Assembly: GCA_050916035.1 (NCBI GenBank)
Contig: CP050876.1
Span: forward strand, 1,120,635-1,184,634
DNA: 64,000 bases
Reading direction: 5' to 3'
Origin: Vampirovibrio sp.
GTDB lineage: Bacteria > Cyanobacteriota > Vampirovibrionia > Vampirovibrionales > JAJTHC01
In this document: positions 2,792 to 56,165 of the stretch, in pieces
Position numbering within the stretch: position 1 is the stretch's first letter
How the letters are laid out: every line of letters begins with the position of its first letter
Program-made: the position numbers and the translations under genes
The notes under the pieces: model-generated
Told to the model about the DNA's origin: nothing
Databases searched by the model: none
What the model saw: the letters and a program-made list of their open reading frames with translations, nothing else

Positions 2792-2944
2792 AACGAGTCT
2801 TATGTCCTTTAGCAATCGGTGAGGTGACGACAGACCCTCAATAGATCTCATTCAACCGATACACTTCTATTCACTTATTAAAGCACAAACCCCTGCCTTG
2901 GAAAACGCTTCCCTTAAATATTCCTTCACAAGAATCACCCACGC

Positions 2945-3853
2945 TTAACTTAGAAAGTTAAAAATACTTTTGGGTAAAATACGCCCCATCACACCCAAAC
3001 TGGCTTCATTGATTTGTTCTTGGAAACGTAAATTGGTAATCAATTGAGGCATATCCACGTCTTGTAATTGACTATAGAATTGGGAGGCCACATCCTGCTT
3101 AGACTGTGTTCGTTCTTGGGTTAAATTCAGTTGATTTAAAGTCGACCCGATATTGGCTTGCTGGTTCACCAAATTGTCGATATTCGTTTTAAGTAAATCC
3201 AATTGCGCGCGTGTGGTCGTCGTATCTCCCGCATCCAAGGCAGTTTTAAGATCAATCAACACCTTAAAGGCCCCTGAGGTCGTATCCCCTAAAAGCGTAT
3301 CGCCCGTCACATTAATGGTAATCGTACTTTGCTTGGCAATTTCAATAGTACGTTGAAACGGCTGGCTTTGAGGCGTCCCCGCATAGGTGACGACATCCCC
3401 CGTGCGGCTATAGGCTTGCGTCCCCGTTTTCGAGCCTGAAAAGAGGTAAATCCCACTTTGTTGACTATTGCCCAATTGCACCAGTTGATCCACCAAGGCG
3501 TTCACTTCTTTGGCAATAGATTTCATGCCCGCAGCCCCTGTGGTGACGTTAGACCCTTGCGTGGCGAGTTCAGACGCTCGCTGAAGCACACTAAGCATCT
3601 GCGTCATGGCGGTGTCCGTGGTAGAAAGTTCCGACACGCCTGTAGCAATATTTTTAAGATACTGATCGTCTTCATTCATACTGCGGGTGACGTCCATCAA
3701 TTGAATGAGCCCTAAGGGGTCATCACTCGGGCGCAGGATGTTTTTGCCGGTGGCGGCTTTTTCCTGTAATTGATTTAAGCGCACCTGGGACTGCTGAAAC
3801 CACTGCGTGCTTTGGGTGCCTTGCATGCCAGTGGCAATACGTCCAATACTCAT
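2945..3853 (-). CDS. flgL: flagellar hook-associated protein 3 (FlgL) / flagellin-family protein
   Basis: The N-terminus MSIGRIATGMQ..QLQEKAATGKNILRPSDDP matches the FlgL/flagellin TGKR..PSDDP signature. YLFSGSKT matches YIFAGYKT of FlgL, and the C-terminus is a flagellin-like helix. Start chosen at the internal Met (3853). Confidence 0.7.
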   Translation of the reverse strand: MSIGRIATGMQGTQSTQWFQQSQVRLNQLQEKAATGKNILRPSDDPLGLIQLMDVTRSMNEDDQYLKNIATGVSELSTTDTAMTQMLSVLQRASELATQGSNVTTGAAGMKSIAKEVNALVDQLVQLGNSQQSGIYLFSGSKTGTQAYSRTGDVVTYAGTPQSQPFQRTIEIAKQSTITINVTGDTLLGDTTSGAFKVLIDLKTALDAGDTTTTRAQLDLLKTNIDNLVNQQANIGSTLNQLNLTQERTQSKQDVASQFYSQLQDVDMPQLITNLRFQEQINEASLGVMGRILPKSIFNFLS

Positions 3854-5182
3854 GGGGGGCCTCTTTCTCTTCAATCGGGGGGAAGACTCTCCGTATAAGC
3901 ATGGCAAAGCGCAGGGGTTTATTCATCCACACAAGGGCGTATTTTTTAAAAGGCTCTACAATCGCTCCGTTTAGGAAGCCGCGTGGGTGAGCGTCGGATC
4001 TGGCGTCACGGAAGACCCCTTGTTTTGAATACCAACTTTAAAGACGGCGAATTTAAAAATTCAGCGTCTAATTTTATTTTTAATCGCCAGTCCCATTTGG
4101 ATGAATAAAAATGTTTGTATTATATGTTGTACTAAAGATGAGATTGCATAAATAATTGACGGCAAAGAATATGAGGGTAAAATACTGGATACAGTATTTA
4201 TAGATATATTTACAGGTATTATAAAGCTATTTTTAAGAGATAATTCAATGAGCATGATTAGATAGTTTACAAGAGTATATTTTGATAATTTATTGTATTC
4301 AAAAATAAAAAAATTGATCAGCATAAATAAAATAATACCTCCTAAAAAACAAAACAACGGTCGTTTAAAAGATAGTCCATAACTAGAAGTTATTCTATAT
4401 AGATGATGCCAAACTGTTTGATGTGTGGATTGCATTTGTTGAAAATAGAAATCGTTCGAAACTTGAGCCTGTCCCAACTCACTTGTAATTTTTTTTAGAT
4501 AGCTGTAAACTTCTGCTTTTGTGTCTTTGTCAGTTAGTTCTAAAGCTTTTAAAGTTAAACTGTTCAATGTTCTATAACCGTTTAGTATTGGCCAAGTGCA
4601 ATAAGCTAAATCTAAACCTTGAAACCAATTCCCATTTTTGATAGTTATTGATTTCATCTGAGACGAAGTTACATCTATACTATTCTTAGGCATCACACAA
4701 GACTCGAAAACAATTTGATCTTCTTCTTTGTTTTTTAAAGCCACAATTGTCAAACGTTTTACAGCTTCTGTAGAGATTAAAGATTTAAATAACAATTTAG
4801 GATAGTTCGCTTGTTCAAAATTAAGTATTGTTGAAAAACTTTCTTTTATAAAAATAGATTTAAAACTTACAGGATCAGCAGTATTTTTAAGTCTCATATT
4901 GTCTAACCCTAGCAAGCCTTCAAATATAGAATATTCAAATTTAAGGGGGAGCTCAAAATAAGTTTCATCCAGATCACACCACTGTTTAAAAATAGCCCTG
5001 TAAAAGTTTACTGTACCTAAAAATTCTGATGATTTAAAATAAACATTCCCCTTAAATACAGCATCGGAAAAATCTAAATTTTCAAAAAAAACGCAATTAT
5101 TTAAACTTGTATGGTTAGGTAGTGTCGACATATAAATAATGATATAATAAATCCAAGATCTAGTTGTTTTGAGGGATTTATT

Positions 5183-19297: not shown

Positions 19298-19393
19298 GCA
19301 ATTTGTCTAAATATAAAACGTTTATATAGGGGAACCGCATTTCATTCCTTTATTTTTTGATATAGAGATCAATTGAGAGAGAGAACCCAAATT

Positions 19394-20719
19394 ATGTCTA
19401 ACATTAATCGTTTTAATTACACACCTAATTTTAATCCCAATGCCTCTTTGATACGGGCGTCGTCTAACGCGCCTGCAGGCTTTCAGCTTCAAATGGGTCA
19501 AATGGCCACACAAGGCAAGGCGTTTATCGCGAAATATGACGCCGATAAAGACGGCACCTTGAATTTTAACGAATACCAAGCCGCAGGCGGAAACTTGACT
19601 GACGGGTTACAGTCCACCGTGTCTAGCCCAGAACTGGCGAAGGCTTTATTTGCTTGCCACGCGGGGCCGAGTGGGACCTTGAACGCCGCTGAATGGGCGA
19701 GATCCATTAGAGCGTTTGATGATAATTTTGACGGCATTATTACCCAAGCCGAATTGGACAAAAACATTGCGGCACGGCAAGACCTACTTAAAATTGACCC
19801 TAATTTATATATTCTAGACGAATACTTGGGGGCTGCGTCTCATGGGAAGGCTATTTTTGGGCAATCGATTATTCAAAATGGTGCAAAAAAAGAGCTAGAT
19901 CCAGAACTTCAAATAGCTCAAGATCTAGTTAAGCCCTTTACAGAAACGGAAAAAGCCAATCTAGAAAAAATTAAGGCCATCAGTGAGCAGTATTACCCCA
20001 AAGACAATCCTTCCGATTTTAATAACTTAGGACTTATAAGCAAATTAAAAGCCGGCTACAGTGAACGCCTAGATAGTAGTGTTTTTCCAGCAGGGCACCC
20101 CTATTATAGTGACCCACGTGCTAAACAAGCTTACATAGATCAAACATATGTTCTTCAAGCAACACTAAAAGGCGAACTAGGGGCCAACCGTATGCTTCAA
20201 AATGGCCGCCTAGCCCTTTTGAGACAATTGCCCCCAGAGCATCCTCAAATCCCGATGCTTTTACAAGACATTGCTCAAATACAGCAAGACATAGACCGTT
20301 CAGGTAACCAGCTTAATAAGGTAACAGCAGTTTTACAACAAGAAAAAGCAAGGGGAAGTAATCCCAGTTCGCTTATTGGAAAGGTCATGGCTCAGCTGAA
20401 TGGGATGAACACGCCAGAGGCCATGAACTTACTGGATACCTTAGGGAGTATTTATACCGTTGATATGAGTGCGTCACCTGAAGAAATTGACAAGCATTTA
20501 GACATGATGCCCCGCTTGGTGGAAACCGTTTTCAAGACCAATCGCTACGTGGTAGGGGATGATTTAAGTCCCAAAACGAGCATCCCTGAAGCGCAGAGCG
20601 CGCAAGCGTGGGGCACGAAAACCACGAATCCTGCGTCGCTTGACTCCACCGCGTGGTTATCCTTTAACTCAACGACCACGGAAGATAATAATGGCAGTGG
20701 CTTAACTTACCTGCCTTAA
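19394..20719 (+). CDS. hypothetical protein with EF-hand-like calcium-binding loops
   Basis: DADKDGTLNFNEY and DDNFDGIITQAELD are EF-hand-like loops. 441 aa with no other domain. The start is MSNINRF, preceded by a GAGAGA purine run. Confidence 0.5.
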   Translation: MSNINRFNYTPNFNPNASLIRASSNAPAGFQLQMGQMATQGKAFIAKYDADKDGTLNFNEYQAAGGNLTDGLQSTVSSPELAKALFACHAGPSGTLNAAEWARSIRAFDDNFDGIITQAELDKNIAARQDLLKIDPNLYILDEYLGAASHGKAIFGQSIIQNGAKKELDPELQIAQDLVKPFTETEKANLEKIKAISEQYYPKDNPSDFNNLGLISKLKAGYSERLDSSVFPAGHPYYSDPRAKQAYIDQTYVLQATLKGELGANRMLQNGRLALLRQLPPEHPQIPMLLQDIAQIQQDIDRSGNQLNKVTAVLQQEKARGSNPSSLIGKVMAQLNGMNTPEAMNLLDTLGSIYTVDMSASPEEIDKHLDMMPRLVETVFKTNRYVVGDDLSPKTSIPEAQSAQAWGTKTTNPASLDSTAWLSFNSTTTEDNNGSGLTYLP

Positions 20720-37267: not shown

Positions 37268-38518
37268 TTATTCTTCAGCTTCTGCTGGAGCAGGCGTTTC
37301 TGTCTTTACGGGAGCCTTATAATCGCTCACACGGTAGTCGTCTAAGGGTTTATTTAATTGGGTGCGTTCTTTATTGTCCGCATCAAACCCTTCCCCTAAA
37401 ATACCCGTAGGTTTAACGCCATCGGCGGCGACCCCTTTATCTTTGGTTTTAACATCCGTGTCAATATAATTAATAAGCTTGCCATCTTTGTCTTTTAAGC
37501 CGGTTTTAATTAGTGTGAAGCTAAAATCATATTCCGTTTTGTTGGTATTGGTCGCGGTCAACTGGTCTTTTTCCCATTTGACTTCCGTGCCATCTTGTAA
37601 CTTAACAATTTCACCTTCTTTTAAGGCTTTACCATTTAAGCTAGCGGCTTCTCCATTCAGGCTTAAGGCATCGTCTTTTAATTTCAAATTGACTTCTGTT
37701 GCTACAGCCAATTGCCATTGTGGAAATAAATCTTGCTTCGCGGTCAAAGAAACGTCTTTGTCCTTGAGTAAATTAAATTCCCCAGGAGGTGTAATGTCAA
37801 AGCTGGTGGCTCTGTTATCTGCCTTATTCTGACGATCTGGATCGACCACATGGGGGTCTCCCCAATATGCAGCACTTTCGTTTACCGCAATCATTTCAGG
37901 CGGCGGCGTTGGTGTAGGAATCCAAGTGAGTTGAACGATAGGATCTGGCGTGGGCGCAGGCGCAGGCGTAGAAGGAGAAGAGGTATTCTGTCGTTGTAAG
38001 AACTGCTTAAGTAGTGCCAAGAAATTTTGAGTAGGGGGTTGAGTAGGTGTGCTGAGGCTAGAATCGTTACCACTTGAAATTATAGGCTTAGGATTTAATA
38101 CGGGAGGCTCAACAACAGGTGCTTTTTGAGTGTTTTTCAACAAAAATAACATGAATAACGTGGAAAGTAACATGAATAACGTGGAGGGATTTTTAATTGC
38201 TCCTGCATTGCCTTGGTTAAATTGGTAAGGAGGAGAAATAGGCCCATAAGGTCTTGCAGTATAGACTGCTGAAGAATAAAAAGAGGGGTAAAGCCTCTGA
38301 TTATAATTAACTTGGTTCACAGGAAGGGCTGAAGCATTTGAAGCAGTTCTAGAAATAAATTGAAGATTATTAGGCGGGGGTAAAGGTTGTTTGGGGTATT
38401 GTGAAGGATAGTTAGACGCAAACGGCATCATTCCAGAAGGTGCGGTATAATTACTGAATCCTAAATTTCCATATCCTGACATTATATTTGAATTCCTTTT
38501 CTCTATCTCGTCACTCAA
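37268..38518 (-). CDS. membrane protein with low-complexity N-terminus, TM helix and YWGDPH (VWD-like) extracytoplasmic domain; paralog A
   Basis: N/Q/Y/P-rich N-terminus, TM helix LFMLLSTLFMLFLL and a Pro/Thr linker. AAYWGDPHVVDPDR and a C-terminal GILGEGFDADNKER block are shared with the 48400-49374 gene. An alternative start is at 38482. Confidence 0.6.
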   Translation of the reverse strand: MSDEIEKRNSNIMSGYGNLGFSNYTAPSGMMPFASNYPSQYPKQPLPPPNNLQFISRTASNASALPVNQVNYNQRLYPSFYSSAVYTARPYGPISPPYQFNQGNAGAIKNPSTLFMLLSTLFMLFLLKNTQKAPVVEPPVLNPKPIISSGNDSSLSTPTQPPTQNFLALLKQFLQRQNTSSPSTPAPAPTPDPIVQLTWIPTPTPPPEMIAVNESAAYWGDPHVVDPDRQNKADNRATSFDITPPGEFNLLKDKDVSLTAKQDLFPQWQLAVATEVNLKLKDDALSLNGEAASLNGKALKEGEIVKLQDGTEVKWEKDQLTATNTNKTEYDFSFTLIKTGLKDKDGKLINYIDTDVKTKDKGVAADGVKPTGILGEGFDADNKERTQLNKPLDDYRVSDYKAPVKTETPAPAEAEE

Positions 38519-41796: not shown

Positions 41797-42375
41797 ATGT
41801 CTGTTCTTGATACATCTCATCTTCAGAATCTTTTAGAACAAAGTGAAGCGGAACTGGCCGACGTTCAAGCGCGTATTGTGACCTTAGAAGAAACGCTCGA
41901 AAATTTAGAAGCGCTTCGTCATCAGGTGGAACAATTAAAGGCTTTTCAACAAGGGATTCAGCAGGCCTTAAGCCCTATTTTAGTCAAGGAAGCGCCTTCT
42001 GCTAAACCAAAAATGTCTCGGTCCTATCGGACGTCTTCTTCATTATTGTCGTCTGGCGCGACAGGGGTGTTTCTCCCTGAATTGGCGTTTAAGGAAGCGG
42101 ATGAGGTCTTGCGTCATCGTCAATCGATGAATTACGAAATTTTTAGAGCGGTTGTTTTACAGGGGGGGCAAGCGCACACCAGGGATATCCGCGACTACCT
42201 GATTACTGAAAACATACAGACCCCTCAAGGGAAAGATTTTAAAACGGCTACCTTGTCTGAAATTTCTGCTCGCGTGGCCTATTTGGTTAAGCGCGGGGTG
42301 TTGCGCCCCATTGCACCGGGGCGTTTTCAGTCTTGTTTTGGCTGGGACCCACTTGTTTCGCAATCAACGCCGTAA
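41797..42375 (+). CDS. hypothetical coiled-coil protein (192 aa)
   Basis: N-terminal coiled coil. No domain. Its 3' end overlaps the convergent ORF 42287-44092 by about 89 bp. Confidence 0.35.
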   Translation: MSVLDTSHLQNLLEQSEAELADVQARIVTLEETLENLEALRHQVEQLKAFQQGIQQALSPILVKEAPSAKPKMSRSYRTSSSLLSSGATGVFLPELAFKEADEVLRHRQSMNYEIFRAVVLQGGQAHTRDIRDYLITENIQTPQGKDFKTATLSEISARVAYLVKRGVLRPIAPGRFQSCFGWDPLVSQSTP

Positions 42376-44092
42376 GTAAATCTTGCGCTTGTTTTTCTCT
42401 AAATTGATGCACACGTTTATGGTAGGCTTCAGGCGCTTCCCCTTTTTTAACCCATGCTTTTTGATCGTTTTGAAGGCTGTTGGGAATACTTAGGGGGTAT
42501 TGTATGTCGTTCGCGACGGAAGGCGATAAAACCCCCTTGACATTCTGAACCGAAACGTCGTGCATGCCTTGCCAGTCTTTTTCAGCATCGCTTTGTATTT
42601 CGGTAATATGATGAATCCTTGGAATGAGCTGGGCTTCAGGCATCCAGAGGCTTTGCCCCATGGCGGTGTCGTGCACTTTAAAATCGACCGTCATGGGTTG
42701 ACTCGGATGAGGACGCGTCCCCAAAATTCTTAACACATGGCCTTCTGTAAAGGTACCACTGCTATTAGGGACTTCCACATTGGCGAGTATTTGACCTAAG
42801 GGACTCTGTAAGGCGGAGATGACATTTTTTTTAATCGCACTAAAGGGTTGAGTATAGCCAGCCACTTGATAGGTCGCTTCCTGCGGATTGGGCGTTGTAC
42901 TCAGGGTGTCAATCTGTTGGAAGCTTACATTTTCAAGCTTTACTTGGTCTTCCATAATACGCTCCATCATCAATTGCTCTTCTTGACTCAAGCCCGCACT
43001 GTGATGCGTCAGGCTTTGCCTAATCGTTTGAGCCTCTTGAGGGGAAAGGTCTTTGAGTGTAGCGAGTAATGCGTTGACTTGCGCTTCAATTTTATCGGGT
43101 CGATGAGGACTTTGATTCAAAACACGGTTAAAGGCTTCTTTGTCACGCGGCGTCAGCGACGGCATTTGATTAATGGTGGCACTGGCTTGATTGAGGCTGT
43201 CGCGTTGGTCGGTTCCTGCATCGTAACTTTTGGCAGAAAAATTATACAATAAGGCGGTTTCTAATAAGGTTTCAGCCCCTGAAGCAGAAGGTCCTTTTTC
43301 TAAGAGTGAAGCGTCCTGTGCGTTCATGGCGCGAAGCGTGCCTAGAGTGGGCACAGGTAAAGACACTTGAAAGCTGGGGACTTCTCCTTCATGCTGGGGA
43401 GGAAGGATTTTATAATCTAAATTTAAATCCTGCAGCACTTGTTCCGCCAAAATAGGCGCGGTCGGGAAGAGCTCATCCGCCTTCAGCTTTTCATGCATAT
43501 TGTGACTAGGGGCAGAGGCTTCATAAATGAGACGCGCCACTTCTTTAGGGTGTTGATCCGCCAAGCGGGCCACTTCGGCAGTGACTGCACAGGTATTGAG
43601 TTGCTTGACGGCTAAAGCATCCGTACTTGTGGGAACGGGCAGGGGCTGTTGTTGATACGTATCATGAGTCGGATTGAGATAAGCGGAGAGCATTAACGAT
43701 TGATACAGGGGACTTAACGGCGGCGTATTTTGTGTTAAGTGATCAGGGCGCGTTAATAAATCAAGGGTTTCGCCGACCGTTTTTTCAGCATCCAGACCAG
43801 GGAGGCAGGGTTCGTTTAATCGTTTTTGTAGATAATACAGGGTTGAATGTTGGTCATCTCCGCGTTGATCGCTCAAGGCGCCTTGGTACAGTAGCTGTCG
43901 CAACGCATTTTGGCGAGCGGGATCGGAGGCAAAACGAGATTCCAACTGCCGAAACCACTGAATTCGCTCAGGAATGCTTTCCGTAATTTCAGGCTTCTCC
44001 TGTGAGGTGTTTTGCTTGGTCACGGCGGGTGATGGTGCAAGCACCTTTTGGGGGAAAGCGTTTAAATAAGAAGAATCGACAGAAGTAAGCAT
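42287..44092 (-). CDS. hypothetical protein (601 aa)
   Basis: Long ORF with no recognisable domains. Confidence 0.4.
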   Translation of the reverse strand: MLTSVDSSYLNAFPQKVLAPSPAVTKQNTSQEKPEITESIPERIQWFRQLESRFASDPARQNALRQLLYQGALSDQRGDDQHSTLYYLQKRLNEPCLPGLDAEKTVGETLDLLTRPDHLTQNTPPLSPLYQSLMLSAYLNPTHDTYQQQPLPVPTSTDALAVKQLNTCAVTAEVARLADQHPKEVARLIYEASAPSHNMHEKLKADELFPTAPILAEQVLQDLNLDYKILPPQHEGEVPSFQVSLPVPTLGTLRAMNAQDASLLEKGPSASGAETLLETALLYNFSAKSYDAGTDQRDSLNQASATINQMPSLTPRDKEAFNRVLNQSPHRPDKIEAQVNALLATLKDLSPQEAQTIRQSLTHHSAGLSQEEQLMMERIMEDQVKLENVSFQQIDTLSTTPNPQEATYQVAGYTQPFSAIKKNVISALQSPLGQILANVEVPNSSGTFTEGHVLRILGTRPHPSQPMTVDFKVHDTAMGQSLWMPEAQLIPRIHHITEIQSDAEKDWQGMHDVSVQNVKGVLSPSVANDIQYPLSIPNSLQNDQKAWVKKGEAPEAYHKRVHQFREKQAQDLLTALIAKQVGPSQNKTENAPVQWGATPRA

Positions 44093-44451: not shown

Positions 44452-46176
44452 ATGACTGTAAAAATCGATCGTTGGAATCCCAGCATTTTAAGAAAAGATG
44501 TCACGGCGGGCATGATTACAGGCTTAATGGCTATCCCGATTACCGTTGGGATTTGTTTGATGTCTGAATTTCCTGTACAGACGGGTTTACTGACGGTGGT
44601 TTGTGCCTGTATCATTAGTTTTATCACGTCTTTCTTTCGCCCTGGTAACCACACGGGTGTGCCTGGCGTAGCGGCAGGTTTAGCTCCTGTTTTGGCGTTG
44701 GGGATTCATCAATTTGGTATGGTCAACATGCCTTTTTTAATTGCATTAACAGCGTTAATTCAAATGCTCGTCTGGTCCAATGGATGGGAAAAATACATTT
44801 TAAAAGCCGTTCCTTCTTTTTTAGTGGAAGGTTTACTCGCAGGGGTGGGGGCGAAAATTGCTTTGAAGTTTTTGCCTTATACCTATGAAACAATTCACGC
44901 GTCGACGGGAAAGTACTGGTTGTCCCAAGAACGCTTAGAAGTAATTTGTATTTCTCTTCTGTCTATGGGTTTATTTTTGTGGCTTTTTAATACCTTTAAA
45001 AAAACAAATCCTGGTTTGCCCTATATTATCACCATTGTGGTGGGGGTCTTAATGGCTGCTTTTTTCCCACTGCCCATGTTGCATATTGAACATTTGCCGA
45101 TTCATTTTAACTGGCCTTTGCCGAATATTGATATGCATCATCCTTCGGTTTTAATTCACATGGCGGGCTACGCGTTGATGCTAGCGACCATTGATATCAT
45201 TGAACAAGTCATGTGTAATGTGGCCATTGGGAAGATGGATCCTTTACAGCGCCCTGTTTCTAGTAACAATAGCTTATTAGCGATTTGGATTTCAAATTTA
45301 CTGTCGAGCTTATTCGGTGGGATGACCAATTTAGATGGTCTCGCGAAAAGTACCACCAATACCACCGCAGGGGCAATCACCAAAACGTCTAATTTAATCA
45401 CGGCAGGGGTTTTATTATTCTTTGTATTTAATCATCATTTGCTGGAATACTTACCGCAGTTTTCCCTTGCGGTTTTGATGATTTTTGCTGGACTTAAAAT
45501 GGTAGCGGGCATTACCCATGTGGCGGCAGAAGGGAAGTATGCCTTTATGCTGTCCTTATTCTGCGGAATCTTTGTTTTTGAAATGGGTATTTTTGAAGGG
45601 CTTTTACTGTCGTTGGCGATTCATGTTTTGGTGACTTATATGATGTATCGTCACCAGCAAACGCCTACCATGACGATGCTTCGTCACTTGTTTGAAAAAT
45701 TTATGGATGACCCCATTGAACTGGCCTTAGACAATACGGCCATTGAAACGGATACCTTTACAGGCGGCAAACGTTACCGCACACTGCGCAAGTTACCGTC
45801 GGATCGTAAATTGTTTGAACGTTTTATTGAAGATTGGGCCGTTGCACTGAATAGTCATAGTCTTTTGCAAATTGTTAATTTATATGACTATGATGCGTTG
45901 CTATGGGGGACTTTTGCCAAAGAACTAGGCAGTGGCCATGTCCCGATTAAAAAGTATTTTGAACATCTCTTAGAACTTGAAGATTTAACCGTTACGTTTC
46001 AAAGTGGTGAAACACGCCAATATAATGATGTATATGTTCAGTCAGGCTCCTATGAATTTACCTACATTAAGCGTGGACATGTCATTAAAGTGCCTGCACG
46101 TTATACCTTTGTGTGTAAAAAATATATGAACAGTTGGTGCATTGTGGAACATCACTCGTCTGAATTTCCTGCTTAG
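44452..46176 (+). CDS. SulP-family-like anion transporter membrane protein with C-terminal cytoplasmic domain
   Basis: The N-terminal DVTAGMITGLMAIPITVGI pattern resembles SulP/MFS-superfamily permeases. Many TM helices, then a roughly 170-aa soluble tail. 574 aa. Confidence 0.45.
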   Translation: MTVKIDRWNPSILRKDVTAGMITGLMAIPITVGICLMSEFPVQTGLLTVVCACIISFITSFFRPGNHTGVPGVAAGLAPVLALGIHQFGMVNMPFLIALTALIQMLVWSNGWEKYILKAVPSFLVEGLLAGVGAKIALKFLPYTYETIHASTGKYWLSQERLEVICISLLSMGLFLWLFNTFKKTNPGLPYIITIVVGVLMAAFFPLPMLHIEHLPIHFNWPLPNIDMHHPSVLIHMAGYALMLATIDIIEQVMCNVAIGKMDPLQRPVSSNNSLLAIWISNLLSSLFGGMTNLDGLAKSTTNTTAGAITKTSNLITAGVLLFFVFNHHLLEYLPQFSLAVLMIFAGLKMVAGITHVAAEGKYAFMLSLFCGIFVFEMGIFEGLLLSLAIHVLVTYMMYRHQQTPTMTMLRHLFEKFMDDPIELALDNTAIETDTFTGGKRYRTLRKLPSDRKLFERFIEDWAVALNSHSLLQIVNLYDYDALLWGTFAKELGSGHVPIKKYFEHLLELEDLTVTFQSGETRQYNDVYVQSGSYEFTYIKRGHVIKVPARYTFVCKKYMNSWCIVEHHSSEFPA

Positions 46177-47385: not shown

Positions 47386-47973
47386 TTATTTCCCAATACT
47401 TATAATGGATAAAGCAACCAAAATCAAGGCATTGACGTTGTCAGGGAGAGAAATCCCTAAGAAATTATTTGGGTTCCCTTGAGCCGTCCCCAGCGTATTG
47501 CCGTTAGCATCACAATTGCCCGTCTTGTAATCACTTTGGCCATAGTTGGGCGTGTTCCAGTAAGATCCTACTTGAGGCTTTAACATTTGATAAGGATCGT
47601 TTTGAGTCGTTGGATTAGCATAAGGCGTTGGATGCTGGCCTTTCATTTGCTGCAGGCCCATGCCCATCAATCGGCTGGCCATCATAAAACCTTTAATAAA
47701 ATCAGGCGAACTGGCTGGATTTTGTGTGTAGCCCCCACCATACGTTTTATTTTGACCATATTGAGGTTGTAATAACGAAGGAGCATAACTGTTGTCGGTA
47801 GGGGGGGTGGCTCCGTAATTTAATCCAAGTGCATTGCTTGAATTTGAATACCCATTAAGCGGAAACACCCCAAAAAATCCTTGTGGTAGAGCATTCATAT
47901 AATTATTACTTTGTAATGAACCCATTCTATAAACTCCTTTTATCCCATTTTGCCTTACACACGCTTCATTCAA
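47386..47973 (-). CDS. low-complexity (N/Q/G/Y/P-rich) protein with C-terminal TM anchor; paralog C of the family
   Basis: Composition and Met-Gly/Ser start resemble the N-termini of the two YWGDPH proteins. C-terminal helix ALILVALSIISIG. Likely start at MGSLQS (47925). Confidence 0.45.
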   Translation of the reverse strand: MNEACVRQNGIKGVYRMGSLQSNNYMNALPQGFFGVFPLNGYSNSSNALGLNYGATPPTDNSYAPSLLQPQYGQNKTYGGGYTQNPASSPDFIKGFMMASRLMGMGLQQMKGQHPTPYANPTTQNDPYQMLKPQVGSYWNTPNYGQSDYKTGNCDANGNTLGTAQGNPNNFLGISLPDNVNALILVALSIISIGK

Positions 47974-48399: not shown

Positions 48400-49374
48400 T
48401 TACACGTCCAAAAGACTGGCTTTTTTATAGGTCGAAATATCTTTTTTTAAGCCACTGCGAGCTTCGTTGTCTTCATCAAAACCTTCACCTAAAATTCCAC
48501 TAGGCAGGACACCATCACTATTGACGCCCTTGCTTTTGGTTGAAATATCAGTGTCTAGGTACTTCACGGGACTACCATCGGCATTTTTATGTTCGCTGGT
48601 GACAATGCTAACATCTAGGTTATATTCCCCTGTCTCACCCGTTCGTACGGTGAGTTTGTTCCCGTCAAAACGGACTTGGGTGCTGTCGCTTAAGGTGACG
48701 ACTTCGCCTGAACCTAAGGGTTTACCATTGACCATCGGGCCTCCATAGGCACTGAAGGTAATACCTACATTGCCAAGGGCAATACCCACTTTGTCGGTGA
48801 CTTCAATACCCCATTGGTCATATTTTTTATGTTCGGCATTCACCGCGATATTGGTGTCCTTTAAGAGTTGGAAAATGCCTTCGCCTTTCACAACAAAGTT
48901 GTCTTGGCGCTGGTTCCCTTTGTCGGAACGATCGGCATCAGCGACGTGAGGATCCCCCCAGTAACTACTATGCTCGTTGGCGGCTACCACAGGTCTAGGT
49001 TTAGGGATGACCACAGGAGGGATTGTCACTGGTGGTGGTGGATCTTTTTTAATAGGGGTATTGTACACGTTGGCATATTGAGGCACGACAGGATTATCTC
49101 CCCAACCGCTTGACCAGCCCCCACCACGAGGGATTTGAACACGAGGATCCACCGCGTAGCGTAAGCGAGGATCCACTTGCGAAGCATGCAAATAAGGGTT
49201 TAGGGTTGTGAATTGCTGTACCGTATTGGTCGTGAAGCCATAACTGGGTCGAGGATCGGTGGGTATCGACGCATAAGGAGGGTAAGGGGTTCTCATGCTA
49301 TTGGTGGCATTGAGATAAGGATTTTGCATATAAGGGGATGTAGGGGAGGTGGTATAGGGATTAAACATAGTCAT
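48400..49374 (-). CDS. membrane protein with low-complexity N-terminus and YWGDPH (VWD-like) domain; paralog B
   Basis: HSSYWGDPHVADADR and C-terminal LPSGILGEGFDEDNEAR are homologous to paralog A. Start at MTMFNPYT (49374). The ORF track extends to 49566. Confidence 0.6.
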   Translation of the reverse strand: MTMFNPYTTSPTSPYMQNPYLNATNSMRTPYPPYASIPTDPRPSYGFTTNTVQQFTTLNPYLHASQVDPRLRYAVDPRVQIPRGGGWSSGWGDNPVVPQYANVYNTPIKKDPPPPVTIPPVVIPKPRPVVAANEHSSYWGDPHVADADRSDKGNQRQDNFVVKGEGIFQLLKDTNIAVNAEHKKYDQWGIEVTDKVGIALGNVGITFSAYGGPMVNGKPLGSGEVVTLSDSTQVRFDGNKLTVRTGETGEYNLDVSIVTSEHKNADGSPVKYLDTDISTKSKGVNSDGVLPSGILGEGFDEDNEARSGLKKDISTYKKASLLDV

Positions 49375-49674
49375 AATTAATGATGTCTTTATGAAGGGTT
49401 TGATTAGGGGAATTCTGTAAAGGGAGAGAGAGGAGGAGAAGGGAGGAAGGGAAATCTGAACATAGGGAAGGGATTCGTATCTTAATAAAGTTTTAAAAAT
49501 ACGAAAAGTGCGCGAATGTTTACACTTTGTAACATTATGTTCATTCTCCCTGATAAGCACTTGCAAATCCCTTATAAATAGGGCATATTATAAAGTGTAA
49601 AGCTTTTCTTTTTTTATCTTTTTTTATCTCTCTTTTTGTAGCAATCAATGTAACCGTTTAGGGAATAAGCTCAT

Positions 49675-50434: not shown

Positions 50435-52234
50435 GTGTGTGTAAAGTGCCTGGAGTATCTTCTGATGACGCTGCTAAATTCTTCTTTTTCTCCTCTCTTA
50501 TCTAATGAAGCGGTGGCCAAACGGCTTGAAGAACATCAAGACTATTTTAAGGTGATACAACCGTATAGTTTGGATTTATATGAAAATTTAGGGCGTTGGC
50601 TTCCTTGTATTCAGCATTATGATGCCTTTACATTGAAGCCTACCCAGCAGCAGGATATTGACGATAAATTAAAGCACTTGATTCGGATGCTTCAAGACCA
50701 TTATGCTTTTACCCCTGTGGAGCTTTCCATGGTGGAAACGGTGGGTACTTGGGGCCTTTCTTTTTTGGAAAAACAAGGCTTCGCAGATGCGGTAGACCAT
50801 AGTCTAAAAGTGGCTTTCACCGCGGTGGCTTTATGTCGCTATTTGGAATTGCCTCGTGAAATATACAGCATGGCGGTTTTGGTCAGCTTACTTCATGACC
50901 CTAAAGATCAAGTGGATGAGGACACACAAATAGCGGTTTTAGTGAGCCATCCTTCTTTGGCTTCTGCCTTGTTGACGTTGTTTCTTAGTCCAGAAGCTTC
51001 CCAAACCATAGGGGTCCCTTGTCTCTTAGAACATTTAGAAGCCATTGCTCAATACTACGACGTTTCTTCAGTTGACCTGGCCGTTTCCGCGGTGAGTGCC
51101 CTGATGGAAAATATAGATTCGGGTTTTGTGGTGGAAGGCGGCTTTGTGAAGTATTTAAATCAAGTACATCATGAAAAATCATGCCAGAAAAATTCCCTAA
51201 TTGTAGAGGCGACTCCTTTTGCGATGGAAGGGGCTTTAGAATTGGCCGAATCCATTCGTATGCAATATCTTAGTCAACTGTTTTGTGTGGAAGGAGACGA
51301 GAGCGCTTCCCCTGATTCTGGTTTTTTGGAGAATACGGATTTAGAAAAAGTGGCGAAAGAAATTCACATTCGCAGTGGATATCCTCATGTGCCTCCTCTT
51401 CCTATCAGTGATGTTTTAATTAGCCACACCCACTTGCAAAAAGAGCATCAAACGTGTCAGCAATTGGGCGCCATACTGGGAGCCGCGGACAACGGACAAC
51501 TGAACGGTTATAAAATTATAGAACATAGTACGGCAGACTATATTACTCGAATTCAGGAGGCTTTTGACGCTCCGTCGTCGTCTTATCTCAATCAGTGGAT
51601 CAGCGTTTGTCACCGTTATCATTTAACATTACCCGCTTGTTTGGATGCCCATCAATTTTCGATGCATTCCCATCCCTCTTTGATGGTCAACGCCTTTGGT
51701 GAATCACTGTGGCGTTCCGTCATTGAAAATTACTTATACCTAAAAAACAATGTCAGCCATATCATTGCCTTGCATTATGTGGTGAGAGAAGGGATTGCCT
51801 TTATCGCTGGCTTACAACGTTATAGCGAAAGCATTGGCTTTGGCAGCCTTTGTTTGTCTTCTCGTTTTGGAGATTTTCTTACGGCGGATTCTTGGCTGGA
51901 CGCGTTAGAAGAAATTGCCTATGACGAAGAATTTTTATGTCTCTTGTACCACGAAATTAATGAATGGTGTGAAGAATCTTTACTACAATGGCCTGACGAA
52001 CTTCCTTTAGACTTAAGTGCTTTTTTACGGATTTATAAGCAGGAAACGGAACGGATTGAAGTGGTTTTACCCTTAATCCCAGAAGGGCGACTTCCCATAG
52101 AGGCTTTAAAAGAAACGGCTTCCTCAGCGCAGTATTTTTCAATTCAACGAAATAATGCTGAAAAACAGCTTGATGATATTTCTACCGTGTCTTCGGGCGA
52201 TCTTATGAATTCATGGAAGGCTTATGTCTTGTAA
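50435..52234 (+). CDS. hypothetical protein (599 aa)
   Basis: Long ORF immediately downstream of the sigma factor gene. No recognisable domains. Confidence 0.4.
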   Translation: MCVKCLEYLLMTLLNSSFSPLLSNEAVAKRLEEHQDYFKVIQPYSLDLYENLGRWLPCIQHYDAFTLKPTQQQDIDDKLKHLIRMLQDHYAFTPVELSMVETVGTWGLSFLEKQGFADAVDHSLKVAFTAVALCRYLELPREIYSMAVLVSLLHDPKDQVDEDTQIAVLVSHPSLASALLTLFLSPEASQTIGVPCLLEHLEAIAQYYDVSSVDLAVSAVSALMENIDSGFVVEGGFVKYLNQVHHEKSCQKNSLIVEATPFAMEGALELAESIRMQYLSQLFCVEGDESASPDSGFLENTDLEKVAKEIHIRSGYPHVPPLPISDVLISHTHLQKEHQTCQQLGAILGAADNGQLNGYKIIEHSTADYITRIQEAFDAPSSSYLNQWISVCHRYHLTLPACLDAHQFSMHSHPSLMVNAFGESLWRSVIENYLYLKNNVSHIIALHYVVREGIAFIAGLQRYSESIGFGSLCLSSRFGDFLTADSWLDALEEIAYDEEFLCLLYHEINEWCEESLLQWPDELPLDLSAFLRIYKQETERIEVVLPLIPEGRLPIEALKETASSAQYFSIQRNNAEKQLDDISTVSSGDLMNSWKAYVL

Positions 52235-53537: not shown

Positions 53538-56165
53538 CTAGGGCGATGCTTTTTTTTGAGCCAAGGCTTTTTGAGTCTTTACGTTTCGGTAAAAGGGAGC
53601 GATTGCCGAAGCGGGTTTGAGCAATGGGGGCTTTTCGTCTGAAGCATGTGTACTGGCGTGTGAGTGATGTAAAGCCTGTACCACGGAAGAATATAAAGAT
53701 CCTGCTAAAGCCATGGCTTCATTAAAGCAGAAAATCGAACCCGCGCAACATCCGTTCGCACAGACGGCTCCGCCTGCTCCTGCCATAATCGCCCATGCTT
53801 TTACCACTTGTGGATTATGCCCATTAATGTGGTCCGCCTTACTGGTATACAATTGTAATTCTTGAATAAAGGCATCCCGCGCTTCTGGCGACCACTTGTT
53901 TTTGTCCAGCACGGCCTTTATGTTGGCTTGCGTGTCAGGGGCGATATGGCCGTCTTGGTGTAAAGGCTTCAGGACGGCCAAGGCTCGGGTGACGTGATTA
54001 AAATTGTCTGCCAAGGTGGACTTCGGTTTTAAGACCTCAGGCGCTTCATGCAGGTGTTGAGCAATGGCTTTTAAACTGGCTAAGCCTCCAATGCCTTCGT
54101 GTTCTAAACCGTGAAGTAAATCAGGCTGTTCTTTCAAGAGTTTGGCTATAGCGTCGCCACTGAACACCCAGTGAAAGATGTCGCCGCCATTGGCATCATG
54201 CGGATCAAAGGTGGAGGTGCCTTTTTTAGGGGCTTCAGGGGCATGGTGATGATGGTCATCTTCGCAGTGGGCGTGGTCATGGTGTATTTCGGGCCTAGAA
54301 GCGCTAGAAAAATCGGTGTTTTGTTTTGAAAAGTCAATATCCCTCAGTGAATGGCTACTTGTACATTTCGCATCCGTACAGGCGTGAACGAAGTTTTCCT
54401 TAAAGGATTCATATTCTTGTGGGTTAGAATGCCGTTGTAATAGACGTGTATATATTGCCTCTAAATCATCAACAGGATCATTAACACCTATCGTAGCACC
54501 AAGACTACCCATTCCAAAGGCTGAGTTTACATTTCTGCCTGCTTCGGATTTTTCTCTGTGCTTCGCTATTGCTGCCATTGCCTTTGCGATCAATTCCGTA
54601 TTATGGATATCATCTTCTGGTTCAAAAACTTGGGTATGTATGTTTTTCGATACCGTATTAAAAGTCAAATGTTCGAGCAGTTCGTTACGAATTTTTAAAT
54701 CTTCCGCCTGAGATTGGGCGTTATGCAACCCGTCTGCCATGTCCTCCCATTCTGCTTCTAAGTCTTCTTGTTCCTCTATTTTGGCTTGACGTTCTGCCTC
54801 ATACGCTTTTTGCGCTTTGGCTTGAAGCAAACGCTCATCATAGGCGTGCGCTTGATCCGCACGACCATGAAACGCCACCGCCTTATAGGCCACTTGCACA
54901 GAGTGTGCCGCGTCTAATTTTTTTAAGGCGTCCTGTTCTAAAACCTCTCGCGCCACTAGGCTAGGGCGAATCAAATCAGGGATGGCTTCTTTGGCCAAAC
55001 GGGCTTCCACTTCCTGATGAATCTTCAGGAAGGGATGTTGTTCTTTTTGTGCTAAAAGGGCTTCTAAGGTAGCCGTTTTTTCGCCTAAATTTTGGGTGGT
55101 CATATGCGCAAGTTCAGACTTTAAATAAGGCTGAAAGACTCGGCTTAACCCTTTCGACGTATAAGCCCCCAAAACATCAGAAAAAACAGTCCCTTTATAC
55201 GCTTGGGAAGTCCCCGTTAAAGGGATGGCCCGCAAGATATTATAAAGCTCATGTTCAACGCCCTTGCGATTATTCATACTGGGTTCATGACGGCGATAGT
55301 AGTTGTCTTTCCCCGCGAGTGTGGGGTCGCCCTGTACCAAGAAAGGATCTTCAAACGCGTTTTTAAAAACCTGACCCACTTGATTTAAACGTTTAGTCTG
55401 CCACGCGGTTTTAAGCGATTCCCGCACTCCGTTGACGACGCCATCCACATGATGCACCGTATTGATGTACCAGCCTTTTTCCCCTCCCCATAAGGGGCGT
55501 TCAGTCGTGGCGTGGGCAAAGGGATTTTTAAGTTCCATTAAGCCCAAGTGAACCCGTGGAAACAAGGCCAGAGCGCCTACCGCGGTGACGCCTGAAACCG
55601 CTAAGCCACTAAGACCCTTGGCGAGGGATTTTTGATTGGCGGACCAGTCCTTTTGATCATCAATACCCTCTTCTATTTTTTCGTGCGCCGTACTAGCGAC
55701 CAAAGCGGACCCTGCGAGTAAAGGGGCCATGGTTAAAAAATGAGCCGTTTTCATCCCGATGCTACCAGGAATCATGGCATGAAATGCAGCACCTAATTCT
55801 AAGGCCAGTAAAGGAGAAGCCAGACTTAAACCGATGCCTTTATTGATCATCGACACCGCACTCATTAAGCCCAAAGCTTTTAAAACCGCCAAGGGCGTGG
55901 GTTGAAATAAGGCAGAACTTTCGACTCTAGGACGAAGCCATGAGGGAACATTCGTCCCTTTTCCCACTTTTTTACGGGCGAAATTCAAAACAGATTCTTG
56001 ATTGCCCAAGGCGATGATGGCCCCCCCCAGCAGGAGTCCACTGCCTACTTGAGTCCATTTATTTTCAGGTTCATGTTGATCATGTACAGCCGTGTCATGT
56101 TGATGCCCAACGCGTGGCTGCAAAGCAACCACAGGGATAGTCAAAGACGAAGAGCTTACACGCAT
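53538..56165 (-). CDS. large hypothetical protein with N-terminal hydrophobic segments and His-rich stretch
   Basis: 875 aa with several hydrophobic helices in the first 250 aa and HHDHAHCEDDHHHHAPE. No catalytic motif recognised. Confidence 0.4.
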   Translation of the reverse strand: MRVSSSSLTIPVVALQPRVGHQHDTAVHDQHEPENKWTQVGSGLLLGGAIIALGNQESVLNFARKKVGKGTNVPSWLRPRVESSALFQPTPLAVLKALGLMSAVSMINKGIGLSLASPLLALELGAAFHAMIPGSIGMKTAHFLTMAPLLAGSALVASTAHEKIEEGIDDQKDWSANQKSLAKGLSGLAVSGVTAVGALALFPRVHLGLMELKNPFAHATTERPLWGGEKGWYINTVHHVDGVVNGVRESLKTAWQTKRLNQVGQVFKNAFEDPFLVQGDPTLAGKDNYYRRHEPSMNNRKGVEHELYNILRAIPLTGTSQAYKGTVFSDVLGAYTSKGLSRVFQPYLKSELAHMTTQNLGEKTATLEALLAQKEQHPFLKIHQEVEARLAKEAIPDLIRPSLVAREVLEQDALKKLDAAHSVQVAYKAVAFHGRADQAHAYDERLLQAKAQKAYEAERQAKIEEQEDLEAEWEDMADGLHNAQSQAEDLKIRNELLEHLTFNTVSKNIHTQVFEPEDDIHNTELIAKAMAAIAKHREKSEAGRNVNSAFGMGSLGATIGVNDPVDDLEAIYTRLLQRHSNPQEYESFKENFVHACTDAKCTSSHSLRDIDFSKQNTDFSSASRPEIHHDHAHCEDDHHHHAPEAPKKGTSTFDPHDANGGDIFHWVFSGDAIAKLLKEQPDLLHGLEHEGIGGLASLKAIAQHLHEAPEVLKPKSTLADNFNHVTRALAVLKPLHQDGHIAPDTQANIKAVLDKNKWSPEARDAFIQELQLYTSKADHINGHNPQVVKAWAIMAGAGGAVCANGCCAGSIFCFNEAMALAGSLYSSVVQALHHSHASTHASDEKPPLLKPASAIAPFYRNVKTQKALAQKKASP

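Follow-up and report, generated by a model that had tools for sequence, protein, structure and literature searches.

Paralogous proteins of Vampirovibrio sp. that carry a divergent, cysteine-free VWD/MIIA-like GDPH domain

Autoproteolysis at the sequence GDPH has received much study in mucins, FCGBP, RGM/hemojuvelin, and SUSD2; what it is for and how it arose are unclear. In animal von Willebrand factor D (VWD) domains, including those of FCGBP, MUC2, MUC5AC, SUSD2, and RGM, GDPH undergoes autocatalytic scission of its Asp-Pro bond via an aspartic anhydride, and a disulfide keeps the two fragments linked (PMC8267560, PMC10880436). This anhydride can be attacked by water or, in the heavy chains of ITIH, by a hydroxyl group of a glycan (PMC8267560, PMC10880436); cleavage in these chains is at D|PHFII, and the reactive Asp becomes ester-linked to the glycan (PMC8267560). 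The only characterized bacterial GD|PH cleavers are NopE-type MIIA domains. The MIIA (DUF1521) domain of NopE1 and VIC_001052, effectors of type III secretion systems (T3SS), is largely disordered without metal but binds two Ca2+ ions with micromolar Kd, whereupon it folds and cleaves after Asp116 of its GDPH, a reaction that is blocked by the D116A mutation; no structure of this domain has been solved (PMC6506597). Here we describe two genes, designated A and B, in a 64-kb window (the whole stretch of DNA that was analyzed) of Vampirovibrio sp., which belongs to the predatory, non-photosynthetic Cyanobacteria (Melainabacteria; Vampirovibrionales). Their products combine a prion-like N-terminus with a divergent, Cys-free bacterial VWD/MIIA domain, and the features that concern us are as follows.

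Gene A: 37268..38482, minus strand; 404 aa from the ATG at 38482, with a disordered P/S/N/Y-rich N-terminal half, a Pro-rich linker, and a C-terminal VWD/MIIA-like domain.
Gene B: 48400..49374, minus strand; 324 aa from an ATG, with a P/T/Y/N-rich disordered N-terminus (~125 aa) followed by a VWD/MIIA-like domain that extends to the C-terminus.
Domain of A: 37310..37891, minus strand; a beta-sandwich of ~194 aa, EMIAVNES...RVSDYK, with no Cys and a net charge of -9.
GDPH of A: 37844..37855, plus or minus one codon, minus strand; G208-D209-P210-H211 in the 404-aa protein, the predicted scissile bond being D209|P210.

The initial annotation of this DNA had noted open reading frames (ORFs) at 37268-38518 and 48400-49374, and both are present on the minus strand in the ORF list. 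The mechanical ORF of gene A (37268-38518) encodes 416 aa from a TTG at 38518, but the ATG at 38482, which is used in the NCBI model, is the more plausible start. The protein (P0001) is 100% identical to HEQ32_05695, a hypothetical protein in NCBI from a 2.04-Mb contig of a Vampirovibrio sp. metagenome-assembled genome (MAG). The mechanical ORF of gene B extends to 49566, through a C/T-rich leader; the GDPH of B is residues 140-143, with a predicted scissile bond at D141|P142.

The paralogy of A and B, proposed from their common motifs, is real, since BLASTP aligns them over 192 residues with 39% identity and 61% positives at an E value (1e-50) far beyond chance. The similarity is limited to the C-terminal ~195 residues, beginning ~10 residues ahead of YWGDPH, and follows the pattern YWGDPHV…LLKD…GILGEGFDxDN. 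The GDPH blocks are AAYWGDPHVVDPDR in A and SSYWGDPHVADADR in B, each followed by ...G.F.LLKD, and the C-terminal GILGEGFD-type motifs are GILGEGFDADNKER and GILGEGFDEDNEAR, respectively. All of the motifs quoted in the initial annotation were found in both proteins; only the spacing in "F(D/V)..G" requires correction, the gap being four residues. As had been described, the N-terminal halves consist of low-complexity sequence; they are rich in P/S/N/Y/T and do not align to one another.

Structure prediction places the domain among VWD domains. A first AlphaFold2 model of the domain of A, generated from a multiple sequence alignment of seven sequences, had a predicted local distance difference test (pLDDT) score of 73.5, with the GDPH segment below 50, and Foldseek returned only VWD domains for it (MUC2, E 9.7e-5). 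The model generated from a 54-sequence domain alignment (A3; mean column identity 33%) has a pLDDT of 95.5 and a predicted template modeling score of 0.91, and is an all-beta sandwich in which GDPH lies in the turn between strands 8-12 and 16-18. In a Foldseek search of the PDB with this model, the top 39 matches are all VWD domains (MUC5B, MUC2, VWF, and FCGBP), with template modeling (TM) scores of 0.5-0.67 and a probability of 1.0; the best is MUC5B (8oer_A, E 3.7e-6, TMq 0.67), and the next fold has a probability of 0.3 and a TM score of 0.18. The structural comparison that had been suggested as a check on the VWD assignment therefore returned the VWD fold and that fold only.

Profile comparisons lead to the same family. 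A search of PDB sequences with a shallow profile of seven sequences gave nothing meaningful, the best match being a phage tail fibre (E 0.018), whereas the A3 profile, run against all PDB chain sequences, matched mouse FCGBP with an E value of 2.8e-23, summed over five VWD domains that individually have i-E values of 0.01-0.3, and also matched MUC5B (1.4e-3), MUC5AC (1.7e-3), and MUC2 (3.9e-3). In every one of these alignments the WGDPH of the family lies opposite the (W)GDPH of a VWD domain and is followed by F-D-G-x-x-[FY]-D-[FM]-x-G-x-x-x-Y; the pattern aligned to the five FCGBP domains and the mucins is WGDPH-x4-DG-x-[FY]D-x-QG-x-Y-x-L. The A domain thus shares with the GDPH-cleaving members of the VWD family (PF00094: FCGBP, MUC2 D4, MUC5AC, SUSD2, and RGM) the beta-sandwich fold and the location of W-G-D-P-H in the first turn between strands, where each residue aligns with its counterpart in the FCGBP sites. 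The C-terminal G-[IL]-L-G-E-x-F-D of the family appears, on inspection, to stand where VWD domains have "GLCGN." Unlike those proteins, A and B are bacterial and have no signal peptide, and two defining VWD features, the conserved disulfides and the C8-TIL-E modules (the "D assembly"), are absent from them: neither has a Cys that could link cleaved fragments covalently, and Pfam scans of A, B, and family members showed no C8 or TIL module.

The assignment is also reached transitively, through relatives that score above the Pfam gathering cutoffs, which are 22.9 bits for VWD and 23.6 bits for DUF1521 (PF07481). VWD is matched in 23 and DUF1521 in 8 of 73 family members, protein P0046 carries a precomputed PF07481 assignment, and NCBI gives the name "VWD domain-containing protein" to some relatives, such as one from Paracoccus aminophilus. 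The VWD score of P0024 is 31.3 bits. P0054 passes both cutoffs over the same residues, scoring 28.3 bits for residues 344-462 against VWD (model 2-123) and 24.4 bits for residues 340-422 against DUF1521 (model 37-121); these two proteins are strong matches to a profile of seven C-terminal domains of the family (A1), with E values of 9e-50 and 7e-24, respectively. In a third protein, P0091, residues 2-116 score 26.2 bits on DUF1521, above the cutoff, and 21.2 bits on VWD. Because PF00094 and PF07481 match the same residues, both Pfam families describe one domain in these proteins. An hhalign comparison of A1 with a profile of seven DUF1521/VWD-positive relatives (A4) gave a probability of 100% and an E value of 8.6e-41 over 179 columns. 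It also showed that the Vampirovibrionales subfamily, to which A and B belong, has 8 extra residues directly after GDPH, reading D-[AP]-D-R-x-x-K-x-N-x-R-x-x-x-F versus D-G-G-K-Y-D in the relatives, a further difference from VWD domains. P0091, a metagenomic protein of 397 aa, is in addition a fusion of the VWD/MIIA-like GDPH domain to a phycobilisome-linker domain (PF00427) and DUF4214, an odd and possibly cyanobacterial architecture.

The closest functionally characterized bacterial relative of the A/B domain is the DUF1521/MIIA domain of NopE1 and VIC_001052, which the initial annotation had missed. Like the MIIA domains of Bradyrhizobium NopE1 and NopE2 and of Vibrio coralliilyticus VIC_001052, those of A and B are bacterial, acidic, Cys-free, and GDPH-bearing, and are found in proteins without signal peptides. 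In a weak match of B to DUF1521 (see below), GDPH lies at model positions ~44-47, as expected from the position of Asp116 in the MIIA domain of residues 73-243 (PMC6506597). The two groups differ in that only ~10 conserved residues precede GDPH in our family, so that positions 1-36 of the DUF1521 model have no counterpart, and in taxon and genomic context, the 64-kb window containing no T3SS. NopE1 has two internal MIIA domains, whereas in A and B one domain, at the C-terminus, follows a prion-like region of low complexity. The comparisons with NopE1 and VIC_001052 were made through the Pfam DUF1521 model; a homology search with A4 returned "VWD domain-containing protein" entries and no named NopE proteins. 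NopE1 has been listed among GDPH proteins "without vWD domains" (PMC8267560), and no paper linking MIIA to VWD was found within the literature that was searched. The overlapping Pfam matches suggest that the present family bridges VWD and MIIA and that the NopE1-type MIIA domain may be a divergent, cysteine-free VWD domain. We regard the assignment of the A/B domain to the VWD/MIIA fold and homology group as very probable. Its membership in VWD is at the level of homology, through fold, profile, and transitive Pfam matches, and lies below the threshold level for either Pfam family, and the suggestion in the initial annotation of a VWD-like domain with a potentially autoproteolytic GDPH is to this extent borne out.

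The family is large. A word-indexed search had found only seven relatives, which come from Vampirovibrionales or metagenomes and lack Pfam domains, but an exhaustive search of 1.84 billion cluster representatives with the A1 profile matched 318 clusters at an E value of 1e-3 or lower, of which 167 remain at E<=1e-10 and 29 at E<=1e-30. Of the 155 proteins retrieved, 134 contain the motif [GAS]DPH, mostly as [IVFY]WGDPH[FIV], and nine proteins have two copies. Across the 54 domains of A3, each residue of GDPH is conserved at 98%; the positions that are likewise nearly invariant are LL-x-D, E-Y, and G-V-x-x-D-G-x-x-P-x-G-x-L-G-E-x-F-D-x-D. Forty-nine of these domains, and those of A and B, are without any Cys, and the domains are acidic, with net charges of -9 in A, -8 in B, and about -8 on average in A3, which is compatible with metal-induced folding.

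The conservation of the motif bears on whether these domains cleave at all. They could instead be VWD-like sandwiches that serve as non-cleaving binding or scaffold modules, for example in a prey attachment pad, GDPH being conserved for folding. Many eukaryotic VWD domains work without cleavage (PMC10880436), Vampirovibrio chlorellavorus places an attachment pad of unknown composition on its prey (PMC4451040), and the lectin, PKD, and dockerin modules of some relatives are typical of adhesive proteins. However, the four residues of GDPH are retained at 98% while the rest of the domain falls to 25-30% identity, the motif has usually degenerated in non-cleaving VWD domains (GGAHI and GDGHF are examples from the mucin alignments), and the bacterial relatives that have been tested, the MIIA domains, do cleave (PMC6506597). 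We therefore consider a purely structural role unlikely and autocleavage of A and B at GDPH somewhat more probable than its absence, the conservation of the motif being the basis for this judgment.

A and B belong to a multi-copy, lineage-specific expansion that is nearly confined to the Vampirovibrionales. When 185,579 species-representative genomes were scanned with the motifs YW[GA]DPHV[AV] and LGEGFD[AE]D, which cover the Vampirovibrionales subfamily only, 22 loci were found, with 2-4 paralogs per MAG, all in Vampirovibrionales/Melainabacteria MAGs except for two loci in a bin labeled as Gammaproteobacteria. In these two (L016 and L019; JBEISK010000013.1 and JBEISK010000006.1), the genes and their order are nearly a copy of those in a Vampirovibrionales MAG (L018), and the bin is probably mislabeled or contaminated. 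Syntenic orthologs were identified for A (L001) and B (L014), whereas in more distant genomes the gene contexts are unrelated; B and its homolog in L018 are 60% identical. Outside the domain, the B-type proteins (B residues ~86-93; L018 5575-6588; P0003) have a common motif, G[WF]x[ST]G[WF]GD, ~40 residues upstream of the domain, which resembles a degenerate second WGD(P) site. The Pro-rich linker ahead of the A-type domain appears from its sequence to evolve via tandem duplication: the L001 ortholog (2897-4408) has three copies of PTPDPIVELPWIP..KPTP versus one in A, and the extra copies account for its 99-aa difference in length from A.

The initial annotation had interpreted A and B as membrane proteins with one transmembrane helix and as candidate surface proteins. 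In such a single-pass arrangement the N-terminus would be cytoplasmic and the VWD domain would be displayed outside, as in the membrane mucin MUC4 or SUSD2. In favor of this reading, A has a hydrophobic stretch, STLFMLLSTLFMLFLL, situated after the low-complexity region and before the domain, but its best 19-residue Kyte-Doolittle window scores 1.46, below the transmembrane cutoff of 1.6, and it has shrunk to LLMLLLL (0.77) in P0002, the syntenic ortholog at locus L001, which is 66% identical to A. B lacks any hydrophobic stretch beyond the domain itself, within which its best window (1.03) lies, and most homologs also lack the stretch; only 11 of 162 family proteins contain any 19-mer at or above 1.6, and such helices look amphipathic and Leu/Met-rich. 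Membrane anchoring is consequently the least probable of the readings considered here, and we regard it as highly improbable. Short amphipathic stretches rich in Leu, Met, and Phe recur outside the domain, at residues ~100-116 and ~153-162 of A (404-aa numbering) and in P0027, P0029, P0033, and others; examples are STLFMLLSTLFMLFLL, FLALLKQFLQ, and MISQLLDFLMQLINMLLEM. Being short and variable, these stretches do not qualify as transmembrane helices; they could be chaperone-binding or export elements.

A Sec-type signal peptide was also found in none of the 162 family proteins with a complete N-terminus, as judged by a simple n-region/h-region heuristic. Relatives in the wider family carry RTX repeats, EF-hands, dockerin, PKD, or PA-IL lectin domains, modules that are extracellular or Ca2+-linked, and it is for this reason that we infer export by a non-Sec route. 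The chances of A and B being secreted appear about even. A similar combination of properties is known from the self-processing module of Neisseria FrpC and related RTX proteins, which undergoes Ca2+-triggered Asp-Pro self-cleavage and is secreted without a Sec signal. RTX repeats are a feature in common with some relatives of A and B, but PDB profile and Foldseek searches gave no sequence or fold match to a FrpC-type module, which presumably has an unrelated fold.

The most likely account of these observations is that A and B are secreted, Ca2+-dependent, self-cleaving proteins. The proteins would leave the cell by the non-Sec route, and the domain would fold outside, probably on binding Ca2+. 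Folding would place strain on W-G-D-P-H, in the turn that joins the first two strands, so that the Asp side chain could attack its own carbonyl and the Asp-Pro bond would break via a cyclic anhydride. Because no disulfide spans the cut, unlike in mucins and FCGBP, the N-terminal low-complexity part would be released or loosened, being either freed or held by a single beta-strand, and would end in a reactive Asp. An analogy in chemistry only is offered by the ITIH heavy chains, which also have an Asp-Pro-His-hydrophobic site, the site in the wider bacterial family reading WGDPHF[IV].

A more specific possibility is that A and B are NopE-type effectors, injected into eukaryotic or bacterial prey by a type IV secretion system (T4SS) or a flagellar or T3SS-type exporter, and cleave only on meeting the Ca2+ of the prey cell. 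They are homologous to DUF1521/MIIA-positive proteins and, as is typical of injected effectors, have a disordered N-terminus and no signal peptide; the MIIA domain is unfolded without Ca2+, a state suited to export through a needle (PMC6506597), and protein injection by a T4SS has been proposed for V. chlorellavorus (PMC4451040). However, the first 36 positions of DUF1521 are absent and the score is sub-threshold, no secretion genes are present within the window, and no T3SS is known from Vampirovibrio, although a T4SS and flagella have been reported (PMC4451040). Injection in this form is improbable, but it is a special case of the secreted, self-cleaving mode of action proposed above and is not truly exclusive of it.

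Several points weigh against the proposal that A and B are exported, self-cleaving members of the VWD/MIIA group. NCBIfam scans of A, B, and the neighboring ORF C (described below) gave nothing, and in Pfam scans of the three the sole match was that of B to DUF1521, at 15.5 bits (E 0.018; residues 133-203, model 37-98), below the cutoff of 23.6; A has no Pfam match at all, and neither A nor B matches VWD at E<=10. The post-GDPH segment, 8 residues longer in this subfamily, could alter the geometry of cleavage. Not all GDPH-bearing VWD domains cleave under all conditions, recombinant MUC2 D4 having stayed uncleaved (PMC10880436). There are no secretion-system or chaperone genes among the neighbors of A and B in the window. 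Taking these points into account, we still judge it fairly probable that A and B are lineage-specific Vampirovibrionales paralogs in which a disordered N-terminus is joined to a Cys-free GDPH sandwich and which are exported and self-cleaving.

Two further features of the locus adjoin gene B.

ORF C: 47386..47973, minus strand; an N/Q/G/Y-rich low-complexity protein with the motif SPDFIKGFMMAS, the downstream neighbor of B.
Pyrimidine-rich (C/T) tract: 49420..49475, minus strand; in the 5' leader of B, ~46 nt upstream of the ATG.

ORF C had been put forward as a third relative of A and B, but it has no significant alignment with A (E 0.04) and has only its composition in common with it, and its homology to A and B was rejected. 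Its motif, SPDF[IV][KR]GFMMAS-x-x-MGM, stands within an otherwise Q/G/Y/N/P-rich sequence and, over 41 aa (E 4e-7), matches an ORF that lies downstream of the B-type gene of L018, at a distance of 400-600 nt. The same arrangement is found in L009 and L019, the C-type ORFs being at 7175-7798 in L009, 7010-8026 in L018, and 7006-7977 in L019. The B-C pair is thus a conserved gene neighborhood, and ORF C may be a partner or substrate of B. Polypyrimidine leaders had been described for both loci. The leader of B has such a tract (93% C/T in 40 nt, compared with a 99th percentile of 0.82 for the window), which is weaker (0.80) in the orthologous leaders of L014 and L009, but the maximum upstream of A is 0.62, equal to the background mean of the window, so that a pyrimidine leader common to both loci was rejected.

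The genes flanking A and B encode GT4 and GT9 glycosyltransferases, an Fe/Mn-SOD, a PPTase, dephospho-CoA kinase, SulP, SPFH, RNR, GatB, PdxA, and RadA. These neighbors are housekeeping genes, so an operon link to secretion machinery was rejected and the genomic context adds no functional clue. Elsewhere in the window, the ORF at 44452-46176 (plus strand) encodes an unusual fusion of a SulP-family anion transporter to a C-terminal CaMKII association-domain/SnoaL-like module (PF08332, E 6e-7). Four ORFs have no Pfam family at the thresholds used: 42287-44092 (minus, 601 aa), 50435-52234 (plus, 599 aa), 53538-56165 (minus, 875 aa), and 19373-20719 (plus, 448 aa); the 599-aa ORF is conserved beside the B ortholog in L014.

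For proteins currently labeled "hypothetical," the immediate gain is a domain assignment, and the tie between VWD and MIIA is the more interesting by-product of the analysis. With at least 318 clusters, the family offers a structural template for MIIA and a minimal, disulfide-free VWD domain for studies of the cleavage chemistry and possibly for self-cleaving tags. Two linked readings go further and are decidedly speculative: that MIIA/DUF1521 and animal VWD domains form one superfamily bridged by this family, and that the anhydride on the released prion-like segment couples to cell-wall glycans or amines of the prey in the manner of ITIH. If the first is true, GD|PH self-cleavage would be an ancient, prokaryote-born device, and the structure and mechanism of MIIA could be read from VWD structures; if the second is true, the coupling would provide a self-activating molecular glue for the attachment pad of the predator. 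A role of A and B in contact with prey is plausible, and they represent lineage-expanded candidate secreted factors in the Vampirovibrionales, whose predation machinery is essentially unknown.

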